A DNA stretch of 64,000 nt, from NCBI GenBank assembly GCA_000004985.1, contig GG738854.1. One strand, written 5' to 3'. Under the pieces are notes generated by a model. That model had not been told where the DNA came from. It saw only the letters and a list, made by a program, of their open reading frames with translations, and searched no databases. The stretch is from Naegleria gruberi (lineage: Eukaryota). A program made the translations under genes and the position numbers. Shown here one piece after another: positions 9,705 through 59,590 of this stretch. Position 1 is the stretch's first letter, and each line of letters begins with the position of its first letter.

Positions 9705-10369
9705 GATGATTTGTTCAAATTCCTTACTAATTAAAATTAATATTAATTGATAATATTCCGAAATTTAAATATATTTAAATATTTTAATATTATTATTAAT
9801 CATAATGATAATTCCAATAATTTAGACCATATTCCAATATATTGTAATCCATTCATTACACGATATTAACATAAAATAATTATAGTAAACAATTTTCATC
9901 ATCATACAAAAATCAAACTCTTCTTTCTCTAACAAAAAACACGTACATTTGCAACATGAAATCATTCACTCTAACCGAGAGAAAAATCTCTTCGTCTTCC
10001 TCATAGGCTGGTTGTGAATTCATTTTAATTATTGTGTGTGCTTCATGTTTGGAGCATTCTCCGAACTATGTTGCTAATCCATCAACACAATATTGCCACA
10101 TCACTTTGCAAAGGCTTGTTGGAGTTTCGCGCCCAAAAAATATCTTGTGTAACGGTCAAAAAAATCATCAAAAAGTGTCTCGGCATGAGATTATTAGGTC
10201 GGAGTTTGATTGTATGAAGAATTGAGTGGATTCATGTATTCATCAATGTATGAGTTTATAGTATGATAGTAGATAAGTGGTGGAGTGATGAAAATTTGTT
10301 ATTTATTTACAAGGAAGAAATACATTCGATTATGAATTTCAAATTGTTGATTACGGAATTATTCTGGTA

Positions 10370-11464
10370 TTATTTCTTCTTTTCCTGCTTGAGCTTCTTT
10401 TCAAGTGCACTGTTGAAACCATTATTTGCATGCGAACCTGAATGGTTTTGTGATTTATGTTTGCCCAAATTTTCTCGACTAGCATAACGCTTTCTATGAT
10501 TGACAAACCATGTCTCTAGTTGTTCCTTGGTCATGCTATATTCAATCTCCTTCAATAGTTCTTGCTTCTGTTCCTCACTTGGATAGGGATAGTCGGGATT
10601 ACGTATTATGAAGTTTTTGAGAATATCAGTGTGTGCCTTACTGTAGGTGGTTCTTTTTCTCTTCCTCTTTGTCTTCTCTTCATTAGAGTCCTTGGTAGAT
10701 TTGGATTTGGAGGATGTAACTTTGGAAGAAACTGATTTGCTTCTTGTGATACGAATTGTTTCAACATCACTATCAGAGGTAGGATCGAAAGAAGTGTCTT
10801 CATCTTCATCTGAGGAAGAGCTTTCATCAGAATCTGAATCCATTGTCTTTCTCTTCTTTGATTGAGGTTCTTCTGCTTGAGATCTCAAATTATAATTCTT
10901 TTTCACACCATCCTTTGTTGTTGATGTAGAACCATTATGTTTTGACTCTACAGAGGTAGTAGGAGAATGAATTGAATCTCCTTGTGCACAAGGAGAATCC
11001 ACCTTCTTCAAATCTCTATAGTACTGTATAAATTTCTGCTCTACTGGTTCTACTTCCTGTAATAATTTAAGAGAACGAGAATCTATTGCACACACCAATT
11101 GGTCAAACATTTTGGATAAATCCCTTCCTGGAATTGTTAATGGAATTATATTCTCTTGTAGTGGATTGGAAAGAAAAGATATTTGATTGGTATCTTTAAA
11201 TAATTCATTGAAATGAAGGAATTCATCATCCTCAAAAGCAAAGCATTCAGTATCTGTCAGATAACTCAAGATGCTATCACAACAAGACCAAGGTTTACTT
11301 GCTTTCATATTTGCTTTTTTGTTTAAGGATTGCATTTTGATGTCATCCCTCAATTGAGTCCTATTAATTCGTCTTTGAGAGGCCATCAATGACTGAACTC
11401 TACGGAATTGATTCCATTCTCTCCAATCTGATGTACCCATCAAATAGACATCCATCATTAACAT
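10370..11464 (-). CDS. TALE-class homeodomain transcription factor
   Basis: Homeodomain KRKRKRTTYSKAHTDILKNFIIRNPDYPYPSEEQKQELLKEIEYSMTKEQLETWFVNHRKRY shows the three-residue PYP loop extension between helices 1 and 2 and the WFxNxR recognition helix. Upstream acidic Ser/Asp-rich tract. True ATG at 11464 directly follows an in-frame stop. Confidence 0.8.
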   Translation of the reverse strand: MLMMDVYLMGTSDWREWNQFRRVQSLMASQRRINRTQLRDDIKMQSLNKKANMKASKPWSCCDSILSYLTDTECFAFEDDEFLHFNELFKDTNQISFLSNPLQENIIPLTIPGRDLSKMFDQLVCAIDSRSLKLLQEVEPVEQKFIQYYRDLKKVDSPCAQGDSIHSPTTSVESKHNGSTSTTKDGVKKNYNLRSQAEEPQSKKRKTMDSDSDESSSSDEDEDTSFDPTSDSDVETIRITRSKSVSSKVTSSKSKSTKDSNEEKTKRKRKRTTYSKAHTDILKNFIIRNPDYPYPSEEQKQELLKEIEYSMTKEQLETWFVNHRKRYASRENLGKHKSQNHSGSHANNGFNSALEKKLKQEKKK

Positions 11465-17425: not shown

Positions 17426-18290
17426 CGCAGAAACACGAAACAATTTAAACATTATCAGTCTGAATACGAAACCTACCTATTCTTTGCCGGCAATTTATTC
17501 GAAACAAAATAATCTCTCAAGTGTTGTCTGTTTTTTTTCTGTGTGTATTTTGCATCTCTCTGAGATGTTGATATCTGTTCAAGTGAACATTTCTATGAAA
17601 ATACAAAAAGAAGCACTTGCCATTTTGGAGGCGGAAGAAAGCTGACGAAAGGAATTTTTTAGCTAGTCTGCATTTTAATTGTATAATTCTGTCTAAATGT
17701 TGAGTTGCTTGTCTTTGGGTTGTCTTTCTGTGTTGGTTTCTGATTTGATGTGCGAAATGTAGAGATATTTCGAATAGAGTAAGGTTGAGGGTTGCATCTA
17801 TTGAATTCGCGATGTTGCTTTTGAGATTTCTACATAATAGTATGGAATGGCCACATTGTAAATATGTAGAAATTTACAAAATTCACATTGAAGGAAGTTG
17901 TGACATTGAAGGAAGTGGGAGAAACGAAACTCCATTGCATTTTTGTTTAGTTTTGTTGAATCTTGGGTGAAAGGTTTGGTGTTTGTTTCCATTCCTTGCG
18001 CATCATAAAATGCAATATAGCAATTAGGAAGTGAAAGTTCAGATTTAATAACCGATTGAGCAGAATAATAGATACTGTCGTTTGGCAGTTCATATTTCTG
18101 AACAGAATGCTAGCCGTTCGATAGATGGAAAGTTGTGTTTCAATTTGAATGAGAGGCAAAGTGGAAAGGAATCTCATGGAAAGTAATGGAAGAACAACAA
18201 ATCATGGTTTTGGCAACTTGCTTTCAAACTGAAACACACTCGGCACCTCTTTTAACTGTTGTCTTAACTATGTTGTTTGAAATATTGGAT

Positions 18291-18380
18291 GGTGCGATGG
18301 TCGAGTGGTCTAAGACGACACGTTAAGGTATTCTAATACCGTGTTCCGCAAGGGCGTGGGTTCAAATCCCACTCGCATCA
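18291..18380 (+). tRNA. tRNA-Leu(AAG), class II, with a 10-nt intron 3' of the anticodon
   Basis: Acceptor GGTGCGA/TCGCATC with one G-U pair; 3-bp D stem GTC/GAC with GG-containing D loop; anticodon stem ACACG/CGTGT; loop TTAAGG followed by the intron. Long variable arm, T arm GTGGG-TTCAAAT-CCCAC, discriminator A. T-run terminator at 18383-18387. Confidence 0.85.
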
Positions 18381-18655
18381 AATTTTTGCTTCAACTGAGT
18401 TAATATGGTATTGTGAGAAGGAAAAATCTCTTTACTTTGAGAATGAAGACGGTTCCAGAAGATGAATTTCCTCACAGATGTTGACTTGTTCTGTTTTGCA
18501 AAATGGCACTGTGGCATGACTATTAGAAATCATCCATTTTTTTAAAGTTGACCAGTTAAATACCAAATAGATCAATAAAATCTGATTTCATTGACCTCAA
18601 TTCAATTAGGGAGGTGTTGAATAAATCAATTATTTAATATTAACGATGAGGAAGC

Positions 18656-25764: not shown

Positions 25765-26214
25765 TTATTGGAAAGATGGATTGGTGGCAAAATAATGTTT
25801 GAGAATTGTCTCTTGTTTGGATTTAATTTGATAGGAAACGAAAAAACATCTTGGATGTGAAGGAAGAGTTTCGTCTTTACAAGGTTTAGTTTCTTTTGGT
25901 TTCTCCTCTCTTCTTTTCTTAATTTTCTTAATTTTATGAACGTGTTTAGGATGTTTCCTATGATGATGATGCTTTTTATGAGTAGATTTATGGTACTGAT
26001 GAATTATTTCTTCTTGGCCATTCGAATGATTGCATTCGAAACTTTCCAAAGATGGATGTTTCGTTTTCCTCGAGTGTTTCCTTCTCTCTGAGCAATACAC
26101 TGTTTGTGCAAACTGTATAATCAACACTATTGCTATCAACAATACAATAAATCGTTTCATTTTCTTTTTGAAATTACAAAACATTAATTTTTCATCTTTC
26201 ATTCCACTTTTCAA
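25765..26214 (-). CDS. Small secreted histidine/lysine-rich protein
   Basis: Signal-peptide-like MKRFIVLLIAIVLIIQFAQTVYC followed by HKKHHHHRKHPKHVHKIKKIKKRREEKPKE. Low-complexity, function unknown. Confidence 0.3.
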   Translation of the reverse strand: MKSGMKDEKLMFCNFKKKMKRFIVLLIAIVLIIQFAQTVYCSERRKHSRKTKHPSLESFECNHSNGQEEIIHQYHKSTHKKHHHHRKHPKHVHKIKKIKKRREEKPKETKPCKDETLPSHPRCFFVSYQIKSKQETILKHYFATNPSFQ

Positions 26215-26366: not shown

Positions 26367-26726
26367 TTAAATAACACCCTTATACTTCATATCAGAAGCA
26401 CAAATGTGAGTAATCAACCATTGCTTAATAAATTGCATCTCAGCATCTCCAACACTAGTCAAGGCCAAAGCATCCTGAACAAATTTATCATGAGTTTCCT
26501 TATGAGAGGCAGATTCAGACCAACCAGCCTTAGCAAACAAATCTTCTTCAGTCTTGAAGTGGAAAACAACGTAATCTAATAATTCCTTCAATGTTGTGCC
26601 GCAACTTCTCTTGGCATCTAAAGCGTTGATTAAAGTGAAGAGTTTCTTGTGTTGTTCGTTTAATTCAGCATTGCCAATATCGAGAGTGGTTGACCATTCG
26701 TATGGGGTTGGGATTGGATAAGACAT
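26367..26726 (-). CDS. Hemerythrin-like metal-binding protein (bacterial-type single-domain hemerythrin)
   Basis: 119 aa, true ATG, intronless. Spacing of candidate metal ligands fits the hemerythrin four-helix bundle: P..W......IG...LNEQHKKLF..INAL, HFKTEEDLF, HKETHDKF, and ITHICASDMKY (H...H...E, H...H, H....D). Confidence 0.7.
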   Translation of the reverse strand: MSYPIPTPYEWSTTLDIGNAELNEQHKKLFTLINALDAKRSCGTTLKELLDYVVFHFKTEEDLFAKAGWSESASHKETHDKFVQDALALTSVGDAEMQFIKQWLITHICASDMKYKGVI

Positions 26727-27128
26727 TTTTGTTGTTAGTTGTATTGATTGTTTTTTTTGTTTGGTTGATTGGCAGGTGACAGTTGTTGGGGTTTTAAAGG
26801 TTTTTTGTGATCAGAAACTTTAGAAGGTGTGGTTGCAATTTGTCTTTTTTTGGAAATTTTTAGGTTTTTGTCGGATTGTAATGATGTAATTTTACAGAGT
26901 TGACTTGTCGTTGTAGGGAATGTGGCGTGTTAAATGTGACATTATTCGAAACAACGCCAGTTTTTCAAATATGGCGTTCAAAAATTATTTCTCCAAATGT
27001 ACATCCAATCAAAACTCAACAATTACAATTATTCGAATGAAAAATTGTAGTCAAAGATTATAATACAACATTTTAAAGTTTGTTTTTTCCACATGTTGTT
27101 ACAACTGTTTATTCTTCCACAACTAAAT

Positions 27129-28178
27129 TTATTCTTTGAGTTGGAAAAGAGCCCAATCTACTCTTGGTTGAATAGTCTTTCCATCTTCCAACACATTAGA
27201 AATAATGTGTCCAGCAAACATTTCAGTCTTATACTCTGTACCATTATCTTTGACTAAAATTGGAACATTGACGTATCCTCTCGGAATATCTTGTGAATCA
27301 ATCTTTGGCCATGCACCAGGTTTACAATCTCCTTTCCATGTTCCCTCATCTGAAAATACACAGAAAGTTGTAATCCATCCACCCAAATAACGAGGACCTG
27401 ATCCACTACCTGAAAAGTGAGCTACTCTATTCCACCACTCCTTATCTGGATTTCCCTTGATTGATTCTACAAAATGATCCAAAACTGGGAATAATAAAGT
27501 AGACCATTTTTCCATATATCCTTCCTTTGTGTCAAATTCCAATAATCTGTTCGCTCTTTCTCTAATCTTGATCCAGTCCTCAACCTCTCCCAATAATGTT
27601 ACACTTGGCAAGTTACAAAACAAAAAAAACTTGTAATCAAAGTAATTCTTCATAGCAGCCATAAGAACCACTGCTCCAACCATCCTATCATTCTCAGTGG
27701 TGGTAGTAAAGTCTGGCATGACCCATTCTCTTACACTTGGATCCTTAATATTCTGTACAATTTGATTGGTCATATCCAATGAGAGGGAAACATAATCAGC
27801 CGAGAATAAATTACCAGAACCGTAGACTGTTAATTGCTTCTTTCCATCAAAGTCTACAAATTTGTCTCTCAATTCTTCTGACTTTCCATTCACATATTTC
27901 GAAAATTGAGTACAAATAGTAAGCCATACATCATCAGGTCTAATGACCAAATTATTATGATAGGAATAGGCTTGAACAACACTTTTTACAAAAGAATTTG
28001 ATCCCAACATGATCATGGATTCATCTATTTTACCAAAACTTGATATAATCGGTTGCTTTACATAAACTTCCTTTTCTTCAGTCTTTGAAAGATTTCTCTC
28101 CTTTCCAGGAAGAATTTGTTCAGGTTCAAAGGCTTGTTTTGGTTTTAAAGAGAGAGAAAATACAAACTGCAACCTCAA
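27129..28178 (-). CDS. Conserved hypothetical protein; N-terminus uncertain
   Basis: 349-aa ORF whose track start is TTG; the first ATG is internal (MIMLGSNSF...). Motifs [24 protein letters not shown] and EMFAGHI resemble fungal/protist proteins of unknown function. No assignable domain. Confidence 0.4.
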
Positions 28179-29906: not shown

Positions 29907-30539
29907 ATGAAAATTATAACAAAACAGCCTAGAAATATTTGCCTCGTTCTCCTCCTTCTCATTGTTGCTCTCGTAGTAGCTCCATCATACCAATTGTCTC
30001 TCTCACCAGAACTTCGTGCCACTTGTTTGGCTGCCATTCAAAGCTATGATAAGTGTACCTTCTATACACAATGTTTGGAAAAGATCAAGCCTTGTGGTCC
30101 TAATGGTTATGCTCTTGGATATGGTTACAAGTATTGTTCTAAATTCTTCTCTGATGTTAATAGAGGAGCTTACAAGAGTGAATATGCTCAAAAGTGGGTT
30201 TCTTCAACTGGTCACTGTTTGCAAAAGTTCTTGATGCAAAATGTTGTTGAAAAGTTGTTGTCTAATACTGGATCTGAATGGAATTGTGAACGTATCATTG
30301 ATGCTAGCTTTAATTCCCATCCTGGATGTTATACTGATTCCATCTCACCTATTGATGGTCAAAAGTATAGTATTTGTAAGCTTAGAAATGTTTTTGATGT
30401 CAAGACTGTTTTGATGACTGTCGATGCTAAGGACTTGTTGACTGCTAGATCTATGAAGCAAATTGTTGGTGTCTTGAAGAATTGTATGTCTGATGTCTTG
30501 TCTTTGGATGAAGTCAATGAATTGAATGATTACCTTTAA
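29907..30539 (+). CDS. Secreted cysteine-rich protein, function unknown
   Basis: True ATG at 29907, signal peptide LVLLLLIVALVVAPSYQ, 10 Cys in 190 aa. Confidence 0.45.
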   Translation: MKIITKQPRNICLVLLLLIVALVVAPSYQLSLSPELRATCLAAIQSYDKCTFYTQCLEKIKPCGPNGYALGYGYKYCSKFFSDVNRGAYKSEYAQKWVSSTGHCLQKFLMQNVVEKLLSNTGSEWNCERIIDASFNSHPGCYTDSISPIDGQKYSICKLRNVFDVKTVLMTVDAKDLLTARSMKQIVGVLKNCMSDVLSLDEVNELNDYL

Positions 30540-30750: not shown

Positions 30751-31716
30751 ATGAGTGCTTCTACTTCATCACATTCAACTGCTCCAATTAAAACCTTCTC
30801 ATCTGAACATCAGGATATGATCCATGATGCTCAAGCTGATTACTACGGAAAGAGATTGGCCACTTGTTCAAGTGATGCTACAATTAGAATTTTTGATTTG
30901 GCTCCAAGTAATTCTGAGGAACCAAAGTTGGTGGATACTCTCATCGGTCATGAAGGTCCAGTCTGGCAAGTTAGTTGGGCTCATCCACAATTTGGATCGA
31001 TAATTGCCAGCTGTTCCTATGATCATAGAGTTATTATTTGGAAGGAAAATCAACAAACTCACAAATTTACTAAAGTTTTTGAATATAGACTTGAGAGTAG
31101 CGTAAATTCAATCTCTTGGGCTCCTCACGAACATGGACTTCATTTGGCTAGTGCAAGCTCCGACTCACAAATTACATTCTTCTCCTACGATGAACAAAGC
31201 AATAATTGGAAGGTTTCTAATATTAGAGATGCTCACAAAACTGGATGTAACTCTGTTTGTTGGGCTCCTGCATCACACACTGGTGCTTTGGTTCAACAAT
31301 CTTCACAAGATCAACCAGAAAATTTAAAGTTTGTTAAGAGAATTGTTTCAGGTGGAAGTGATAAGCTTGTTAAAATTTGGGAATTCAATGAAAGCTCAAA
31401 CCAATGGCAAATTGAAGCTGAATTGGAAGGACATGACGATTGGGTTAGAGATGTTTCTTGGGCACCAAATATTGGTCTCCCTTATGAAACTATTGCCTCA
31501 TGCTCCCAAGATAAACGAGTTATTATTTGGACTAGAGATCAAAATTCAAACCAATGGAGCAAGCAAATTTTACCTTTCGAAAATGTTGTTTGGAGAGTTA
31601 GTTGGTCATTAACTGGTAATATTTTGGCCATTTCTACTGCTGATAATGAAGTTACTTTGTGGAAGGAAGATGTTAATGGTTCTTTCCAAAAAATTAGTTC
31701 ATTGAGTGACAAGTAA
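30751..31716 (+). CDS. SEC13: Sec13 (COPII coat / nuclear pore WD40 protein)
   Basis: N-terminus ...HQDMIHDAQADYYGKRLATCSSDATIRIFD is the hallmark Sec13 start. Six WD repeats follow (GHEGPVWQVSWAHP, ASCSYDHRVIIW, SVNSISWAP, AHKTGCNSVCWAP, HDDWVRDVSWAP, VVWRVSWSLTG). Single exon, true ATG. Confidence 0.85.
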   Translation: MSASTSSHSTAPIKTFSSEHQDMIHDAQADYYGKRLATCSSDATIRIFDLAPSNSEEPKLVDTLIGHEGPVWQVSWAHPQFGSIIASCSYDHRVIIWKENQQTHKFTKVFEYRLESSVNSISWAPHEHGLHLASASSDSQITFFSYDEQSNNWKVSNIRDAHKTGCNSVCWAPASHTGALVQQSSQDQPENLKFVKRIVSGGSDKLVKIWEFNESSNQWQIEAELEGHDDWVRDVSWAPNIGLPYETIASCSQDKRVIIWTRDQNSNQWSKQILPFENVVWRVSWSLTGNILAISTADNEVTLWKEDVNGSFQKISSLSDK

Positions 31717-34611: not shown

Positions 34612-34858
34612 ATCTTATAATTATTGAACATTTGACAGAGTATTGACTTTTCAAAAATTTGGGGATGGCATCACTTTGCTTGCTGTTTGAATTTTCTGTG
34701 TAGATCAGAACACAAAATATGTTTCACACTTAATTTGGATAATTGTTGGATGGTTTGTTTTCCAGAAGGACGAGAAATAATGAGAGAAACCTACACAGAA
34801 GAGGATAAAAGAGATTTATTCTAACATATGGTTTTCATAAATTGAAAGCAACAAAATT

Positions 34859-34948
34859 TGATGCGAGTGGGATTTGAACCCACGCCCTTGCGGAACACGG
34901 TATTAGAATACCTTAACGTGTCGTCTTAGACCACTCGACCATCGCACC
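34859..34948 (-). tRNA. tRNA-Leu(AAG) with 10-nt intron; inverted duplicate of 18291-18380
   Basis: Reverse complement is identical to the plus-strand copy over the tRNA body and intron. About 85 bp of 5' flank (...tcttttaactgttgtcttaac.at.ttgtttgaaatatt.gatgg) is also conserved between the two copies. Confidence 0.85.
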
Positions 34949-35321
34949 ATCGAATATTTCAAACAAAATGGTTAAGACAACAGTTAAAAGAGAATTTCAA
35001 AGAGAAAAGCAAGTTGAAAGAACCATGTTAAGACTACAGTTTGGTTAATGGGTTCGAGGATTTTACAATCAATCTGTTCACTAATGACTTTTCTTGAATG
35101 ATATAGATTATTCTGAATTCTGTTTGATTAATAATAATTAATTTAATTATTGAAAGTAAAATTTTGATGGAACTATCTGTTGCTCAATGATGTCGGTTAG
35201 CACAATTAGGTGCCTTTTCAAAATATTATCGATACTATTCGAAAGGAAAATAATCCATAATATTTGTGTGTGAAAACAACAAGCTCCATCTCTTCTCTTT
35301 GAATTCATTCAAATGATTCAA

Positions 35322-59517: not shown

Positions 59518-59590
59518 CGCCCACCGTGGGGGTCGAACCCACGACCACAAGGTTAAGAGCCTTGCGCTCTACCGACTGAGCTAGACGGGC
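59518..59590 (-). tRNA. tRNA-Lys(CTT)
   Basis: The reverse complement GCCCGTCTAGCTCAGTCGGTAGAGCGCAAGGCTCTTAACCTTGTGGTCGTGGGTTCGACCCCCACGGTGGGCG folds as a canonical 73-nt cloverleaf with anticodon CTT. A T-run lies downstream on the minus strand. Confidence 0.9.

Follow-up and report, generated by a model that had tools for sequence, protein, structure and literature searches.

A native myohemerythrin-type hemerythrin gene of Naegleria gruberi NEG-M

The minus-strand open reading frame (ORF) at 26367..26726 of the 64-kb stretch of Naegleria gruberi DNA that we analyzed (hereafter the window) is very probably the already annotated gene NAEGRDRAFT_44819, native to this genome and encoding an O2/NO-binding hemerythrin of the myohemerythrin type. 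The identity of the gene, its fold, ligands, clade and native context were established in the present analysis. The gene has been annotated since the release of the N. gruberi genome, appears in three hemerythrin phylogenies in print and has been the subject of biochemical and proteomic work. It therefore matters little as a discovery, and the useful outcome is a correction of its type, which is eukaryote/myohemerythrin and not bacterial as a preliminary description based on the sequence had it. That description also missed how well known the gene family is, Nfa1 having been reported in 2001 and the N. gruberi hemerythrins having been catalogued in 2008. The family is of medical relevance, Nfa1 and its N. 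fowleri paralogue being candidate virulence factors, and of physiological relevance, since no other Naegleria protein is regulated by iron as strongly as hemerythrin.

The hemerythrin gene, its diiron ligands and its fold

The ORF begins with ATG and comprises 119 codons and a stop codon; its product has MSYPIPTPYEWSTTLDIGNAELNEQHKK at the N-terminus and MKYKGVI at the C-terminus. Using an exact-sequence look-up, we found the protein to be 100% identical over 119 residues to the "myohemerythrin" of N. gruberi NEG-M, which is filed under the accessions EFC37887.1, EFC38044.1, EFC47558.1, XP_002670631.1, UniProt D2V6E6 and NAEGRDRAFT_44819. EFC47558.1 (D2V6E6) is the same gene as the one in the window, as 119/119 residues and the scaffold neighbors are the same and no difference was seen. 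Since all eight EFC/XP pairs seen differ by a constant 2,632,744, the XP counterpart of EFC47558.1 is presumably XP_002680302.1, an assignment deduced from the numbering. The coding sequence is further supported by the Pfam family PF01814 (Hemerythrin), which matches it with an E-value of 5e-9 and 37.1 bits (cut-off 25.3), and by the PDB and AlphaFold2/Foldseek comparisons below. As the ORF is uninterrupted and fully identical to the annotated protein, the gene is intronless; this point of the preliminary description holds, as does its reading of the product as a single-domain hemerythrin of 119 aa, given the ORF, the PF01814 match and an end-to-end alignment with the myohemerythrin structure 2MHR. 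A tblastn search of the protein against the whole window returned no second hemerythrin copy.

In the latter alignment, residues 3-118 pair with Themiste zostericola myohemerythrin (2MHR/1A7D) with an E-value of 8.8e-16 and two one-residue gaps, and H26, H56, E60, H75, H79, H107 and D112 fall on H25, H54, E58, H73, H77, H106 and D111, the crystallographic diiron ligands of myohemerythrin. The protein thus carries the seven-ligand pattern H...HxxxE...HxxxH...HxxxxD including the fifth His, and all seven columns are invariant among 46 aligned homologues, confirming the earlier claim of a full ligand set in canonical spacing. The same alignment shows F57, I108 and Y115 to be invariant as well, and conservation of at least 90% at W11, W103 and L104. 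The hydrophobic O2 pocket is likewise present, with Phe following the second His, and with the sixth ligand preceded by Trp-Leu and followed by Ile. Codons 26-112 (26391..26651, minus strand) encode the seven ligands together with the pocket residues F57, W103, L104 and I108; in two alignments, the columns of all these residues show either no variation or conservation of at least 90%. L104 aligns with L103 of myohemerythrin, mutated in 1A7E, and with L114 of the M. capsulatus protein, mutated in 4XPW, 4XPY and 4XQ1. The diiron site of hemerythrins is mu-oxo/hydroxo-bridged and is coordinated by five His, one Glu and one Asp, and O2 binds to the five-coordinate iron as hydroperoxide inside a pocket formed by Leu, Trp, Phe and Ile. 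All residues of this established site and pocket are found in the N. gruberi protein. The fifth His (H73 of myohemerythrin, 'His74') separates O2-binding hemerythrins from FBXL5-type domains and is a criterion of the published clade B (PMC3730353).

The AlphaFold2 model, computed from a 45-sequence alignment, has a mean pLDDT of 95.2 and a pTM of 0.88, and shows an up-and-down four-helix bundle within the usual size of about 115-135 residues, with helices at 20-38, 43-67, 72-87 and 94-115 and the N-terminal arm in front. When the model was compared with the PDB by Foldseek, the probability was 1.00 for 2MHR, 1HMD, 1I4Y, 4XPX and 2AVK, with a TM-score of 0.93 for myohemerythrin 2MHR (rmsd 1.1 A over 118 columns), 0.89 for sipunculan hemerythrins, 0.85 for M. 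capsulatus bacteriohemerythrin 4XPX and 0.76-0.80 for DcrH-Hr. T. zostericola myohemerythrin is a monomeric four-helix bundle of 118 aa and shares with the Naegleria protein the arm, the ligand positions and the Leu103 pocket residue. However, the two proteins are only about 32% identical, and the former is a muscle O2 store of an animal whereas the latter belongs to a unicellular organism, in which metals and stress regulate it.

Assignment to the myohemerythrin type

The 'bacterial-type' label of the preliminary description is unsupported, since the protein has the N-terminal arm, lacks the insertions typical of bacterial sequences in the A-B and C-D loops, matches myohemerythrin best in both sequence and fold, and falls in the arm-bearing clade, in agreement with published trees. 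The arm, YPIPTPYEW, is encoded by codons 3-11 (26694..26720, minus strand) and aligns with WEIPEPYVW of 2MHR. Its motif P.P[FYW].[WYF] occurs in 42 of 87 single-domain homologues, the myohemerythrin anchor included, and in none of the bacterial-type ones of ~130-140 aa. Proteins of the arm-type class, which includes the window protein, all Naegleria-like matches and myohemerythrin, are about 119-128 aa long in our alignment (about 113-128 aa for the subgroup in general); helix A is preceded by the sequence x-I-P-x-P-[FY]-x-W, and the A-B and C-D loops are short. Those of the bacterial-type class have about 130-140 aa and no arm, start with M-x-x-x-W-x-x-x-x-S-V-G, and carry insertions of 6-7 residues after helix A and of 7-10 residues before helix D. 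With the arm present and both insertions absent, the N. gruberi protein shows the eukaryote/metazoan-type combination of arm and short loops, and the bacteriohemerythrin features, i.e., a missing arm and long loops, are not found in it. Its alignment to 4XPX starts only at residue 22 and requires three gaps. Although M. capsulatus bacteriohemerythrin 4XPX and DcrH-Hr 2AVK share their fold, all seven ligands and the conserved Leu gate with the N. gruberi protein, they are 130-137 aa long and armless, contain both loop insertions, reach TM-scores of only 0.76-0.85, and lie on the opposite side of the main bipartition of our tree.

This neighbor-joining (NJ) tree was built from the 87 single-domain sequences over 126 columns with 200 bootstraps. 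Because gaps made up over 50% of the arm columns, these were dropped from it, and the insertion columns were gap-excluded when pairwise distances were calculated. The bipartition between sequences with and without the arm was recovered in 171 of the 200 bootstraps of this distance-based tree of a short protein, which consists mostly of unlabelled environmental or metagenomic representatives and does not resolve the deep order within the arm-type clade. Within the arm clade, to which 2MHR also belongs, the N. gruberi protein is part of a tight Naegleria-like group. All five members of this clade with known origin are eukaryotes, namely, Naegleria, a sipunculan, two foraminifera and Paramoeba; the arm-type representatives with a named source are Nonionella stella and Bolivina argentea (foraminifera) and Paramoeba atlantica. 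Earlier phylogenies point in the same direction. Bailly et al. found five hemerythrins in N. gruberi in 2008 and grouped the heterolobosean ones with those of metazoans, apart from a cluster of prokaryotes and fungi (PMC2556348); Martin-Duran et al. (2013) placed Naegleria in "clade B" together with the respiratory hemerythrins, and favored ancient presence followed by multiple losses (PMC3730353); and in the tree of Alvarez-Carreno et al. (2016) N. gruberi clusters with Nematostella (PMC4919030). The protein therefore belongs to the eukaryote/myohemerythrin type, on a metazoan-like, arm-bearing branch.

More speculatively, one ancient family derived from an early eukaryote might unite the arm-type hemerythrins found in Heterolobosea, Amoebozoa (Paramoeba, Acanthamoeba), Foraminifera and Metazoa with many environmental eukaryote-like sequences, and the near-identical copies in N. 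gruberi might then reflect a recent increase in gene dosage for coping with metal or oxidative stress. Our data are in keeping with this combined proposal, but we hold it only tentatively, as the identical copies may just as well be haplotigs of the assembly. An ancient eukaryotic family of the arm type has been put forward before (PMC3730353).

Several arm-type sequences encountered in the searches deserve a description of their own. P0042, a protein of 391 aa from a Logan assembly, has three arm-type hemerythrin domains behind a signal-like N-terminus, and P0043 (697 aa) has six consecutive myohemerythrin-like domains of the arm type. P0024, an arm-type hemerythrin 50% identical to the N. 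gruberi protein, is encoded at 10001-10381 (+) on metagenomic contigs of 18-31 kb (L002/L003) with 55-61% GC, where most of the called genes are orphans, accompanied by a mitochondrial carrier, a zf-PARP/HHH_8 protein and a DUF3825 protein of 1134 aa. These contigs probably come from an uncultured eukaryote whose genes were called with a prokaryotic gene finder. Their dense, mostly orphan genes would also suit a fragment of a giant virus, which is formally conceivable, but the GC content, the mitochondrial carrier and the zf-PARP gene fit a eukaryote better.

Function of hemerythrin in Naegleria

The chemistry of these proteins has been demonstrated in the literature; the physiological role is something we can only infer, and it is still debated. 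Interaction of N. gruberi hemerythrin with oxygen in vitro is mentioned with reference to Malych 2022 (PMC9540462), and papers citing that work credit it with diiron occupancy and reversible O2 binding of the N. gruberi protein (PMC11964265, PMC9540462). The spectrum of a recombinant paralogue of Nfa1 from N. fowleri has the bands of an oxy-hemerythrin, at 330, 380 and 500 nm; this protein also gives a mixed-valence EPR signal, uses up about three NO per molecule, and elutes as a ~15-kDa monomer like N. gruberi hemerythrin (PMC11964265). The N. fowleri hemerythrin NF0127030 is abundant in the presence of iron and goes down 7045-fold under iron starvation, with its mRNA going down too; the fall was confirmed using an antibody against N. 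gruberi hemerythrin, and the authors, who report the same behavior in N. gruberi, proposed a role as a cytosolic iron pool while calling the physiological role 'suggestive but unclear' (PMC7326272). Naegleria hemerythrin also rises under metal stress. In N. gruberi, "XP_002680302.1 Hemerythrin" went up 2.0-fold under copper limitation (PMC9035749), although such proteomic and biochemical data are not assignable to the EFC47558 locus alone, since the same protein is encoded at three loci. A yeast cup2 mutant was not complemented by N. fowleri hemerythrin.

Nfa1 of N. fowleri (GenBank AF230370), known since 2001 as a 13.1-kDa antigen encoded by 360 bp and 43% identical to Nereis myohemerythrin (PMC11614482), likewise has 119 aa, and has its ligand set and its similarity to myohemerythrin in common with the N. 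gruberi protein, of which it is a homologue. Regulation by iron and copper and binding of O2 and NO have been shown for the N. fowleri proteins, Nfa1 and its paralogue A0A6A5BXL4. Nfa1 localizes to food-cups, and its knock-down or blockade by antibody lowers cytotoxicity and phagocytosis (PMC11614482, PMC7326272). However, it comes from a different species, and the food-cup and virulence role is claimed for N. fowleri only.

Taking these data together, we propose that NAEGRDRAFT_44819, one of five single-domain hemerythrin genes in N. gruberi, encodes a cytosolic, monomeric four-helix-bundle protein of ~13 kDa, in which five His, one Glu and one Asp would hold an oxo-bridged diiron center within the hydrophobic pocket. 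The reduced (deoxy) center would bind O2 reversibly as hydroperoxide and could bind NO too, and in the cell the protein would most likely serve to buffer or scavenge O2, reactive species and NO. As the protein is abundant and its level follows the iron supply, it may in addition serve as a dispensable cytosolic iron pool, as has been proposed. The protein is a long-standing resident of Heterolobosea and evolves under purifying selection.

The extremely strong dependence on iron, together with the iron pool suggested by the authors of the starvation study (PMC7326272), could also mean that the main job of the protein is that of an iron store or sensor, and the presence of Nfa1 at food-cups, where blockade or knock-down cuts cytotoxicity and phagocytosis, that it is an Nfa1-like structural or adhesion factor of the food-cup, in either case not an O2/NO buffer. 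We regard this as a serious but distinctly less probable explanation. With only two iron atoms per monomer, the storage capacity depends on abundance alone; the complete signature of the O2 pocket (F57, W103, L104, I108 and the fifth His, H75) has been kept; and Naegleria hemerythrins bind O2 and NO in vitro, for N. gruberi according to the citing papers (PMC11964265, PMC9540462). Buffering of O2 and NO is compatible with a role in iron storage or at the food-cup.

Genomic context, copies and origin of the gene

The window is a piece of the N. gruberi NEG-M genome, and the gene has ordinary eukaryotic genes as its physical neighbors. Five neighboring ORFs encode exact N. gruberi proteins, all on the 665,159-bp scaffold of EFC47558: EFC47433 (22509..23099), EFC47560 (28699..29343), EFC47434 (29907..30536, plus strand), EFC47435 (Sec13; 30751..31713) and EFC47562 (36671..39211). 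Their accession numbers are ordered along each strand, which places EFC47558 at the position of the hemerythrin gene. Besides Sec13, the window contains genes for polyubiquitin, cullin-like, BTB, NHL, TrkH and DUF4419 proteins, and the eukaryotic context asserted in the preliminary description is thus well founded. Its statement that secreted-protein genes flank the hemerythrin gene is only partly right: the immediate downstream neighbor (25765..26160, minus strand), an uncharacterized His/Lys-rich ORF of ~131 aa, has a signal-like N-terminus, whereas the immediate upstream neighbor (27129..28178, minus strand), a DUF4419 protein according to Pfam, has none, and a clearly signal-bearing ORF (29907..30539, plus strand) is 3 kb away. 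The product of the downstream ORF begins with HKKHHHHRKHPKHVHKIKKIKKRREEK..., its signal-like hydrophobic stretch being MKRFIVLLIAIVLIIQFAQTVYC, and this putative ORF has no Pfam match.

Three loci on different contigs of the assembly, the longest of 665,159 bp, encode the identical hemerythrin (EFC37887, EFC38044 and EFC47558), and the product of a fourth, EFC37982.1, differs by one residue (A95G). The neighboring gene at 29907-30536 (+) also has a twin of at least 90% identity, EFC35956.1, on a 15-kb scaffold. These near-identical loci suggest either haplotig scaffolds or a recent segmental duplication. For a paralogue with 78% identity (L001), the product look-up matched only a metagenomic contig of 894 bp. 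A hemerythrin gene with 95% identity (dS about 0.5, dN/dS 0.06) lies on a contig of 1148 bp (L007; JBNHEI010287342.1) in GCA_050043615.1, an assembly of more than 287,000 contigs, which suggests DNA of an amoeba of the Naegleria gruberi group within the assembly of another organism or a metagenome. The flanks of this locus and of the hemerythrin locus in the window diverge immediately outside the coding sequence, and the position of the downstream ORF 25765-26160 (-) is not conserved in it. The N. lovaniensis relative of the Nfa1/hemerythrin type is 59% identical and has a different genomic neighborhood; its gene, intronless too, is found on a 716-kb contig among kinase, F-box and B-box genes.

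We found no deviation of the gene from its neighbors in composition or codon usage. Its GC3 of 0.367, against 0.291+-0.047 in the 40 other ORFs of the window, is inside their range (0.095-0.369), and in a leave-one-out synonymous-codon likelihood analysis it has z=+0.62 and ranks 26th of 41. The Nei-Gojobori dN/dS is 0.057 for the comparison with the 95% relative, 0.10 for that with the 78% paralogue type and 0.25 for that with the homologue of N. lovaniensis, indicating strong purifying selection. The typical codon usage and these low ratios give no signal of a recent transfer, and neither foreign flanks nor any other sign of a foreign gene was seen. In a scan of viral sequences in IMG/VR for signs of spread by giant viruses, 56 pattern matches were obtained, and none was confirmed by tblastn.

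Accordingly, the horizontal transfer suggested by the preliminary description finds no support, as a recent event, in codon usage, GC3, flanks or clade. It might be argued that Naegleria gained a bacterial-type gene from bacteria relatively recently, since the gene is without introns, hemerythrins are patchily distributed among eukaryotes (PMC2556348, PMC4919030, PMC3730353), and bacteria have by far the larger number and diversity of O2-binding hemerythrins, most of our 7666 matches at E<=0.001 being bacterial-type proteins of ~135 aa or multidomain ones. However, the absence of introns is uninformative here, as many genes in the window are uninterrupted ORFs equal to annotated proteins; homologues are present in both N. 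lovaniensis and N. fowleri; and the arm, the two missing loop insertions, the best matches in sequence and structure to myohemerythrin, the codon usage typical of the window, and the position in a clade that splits from the bacterial-type sequences at 171/200 and has only eukaryotes among its five members of known origin all speak against such a gain, which we consider highly improbable. A transfer in the distant past, at the root of the eukaryote-type clade, as discussed in PMC3730353, is conceivable. The idea that the contig is chimeric or a contaminant, and the gene no true part of the eukaryotic genome, can practically be dismissed, as nothing was found in its favor and only the small size and the missing introns could give rise to such a suspicion, whereas the GC content is uniform (0.29-0.39) over all 64 kb, both flanks are exact N. 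gruberi proteins with consecutive accessions on the 665-kb scaffold, the codon usage matches that of the neighbors, and both proteomics and an antibody have revealed the protein in N. gruberi (PMC9035749, PMC7326272).

Directly upstream of the ATG, an A/C-rich 5' leader (26727..26775, minus strand) is the sole flanking stretch that can still be aligned with the 95% relative, and it may have a regulatory role. When the 5' flanks of six homologous loci were aligned in search of a conserved upstream cis-element, only this generic leader was recovered, common to the 95% relative alone, and no specific leader motif was common to the more distant paralogues. Elsewhere in the window, two 92-nt tRNA genes at 18290-18381 (+) and 34858-34949 (-) are 100% identical, lie 16.5 kb apart in opposite orientation, and score 47.9 bits with the Rfam tRNA model, with no anticodon assigned by ARAGORN; they are probably class-II (Leu-like) tRNAs with a short intron. 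A normal tRNA-Lys(CTT) is located at 59518-59590 (-).
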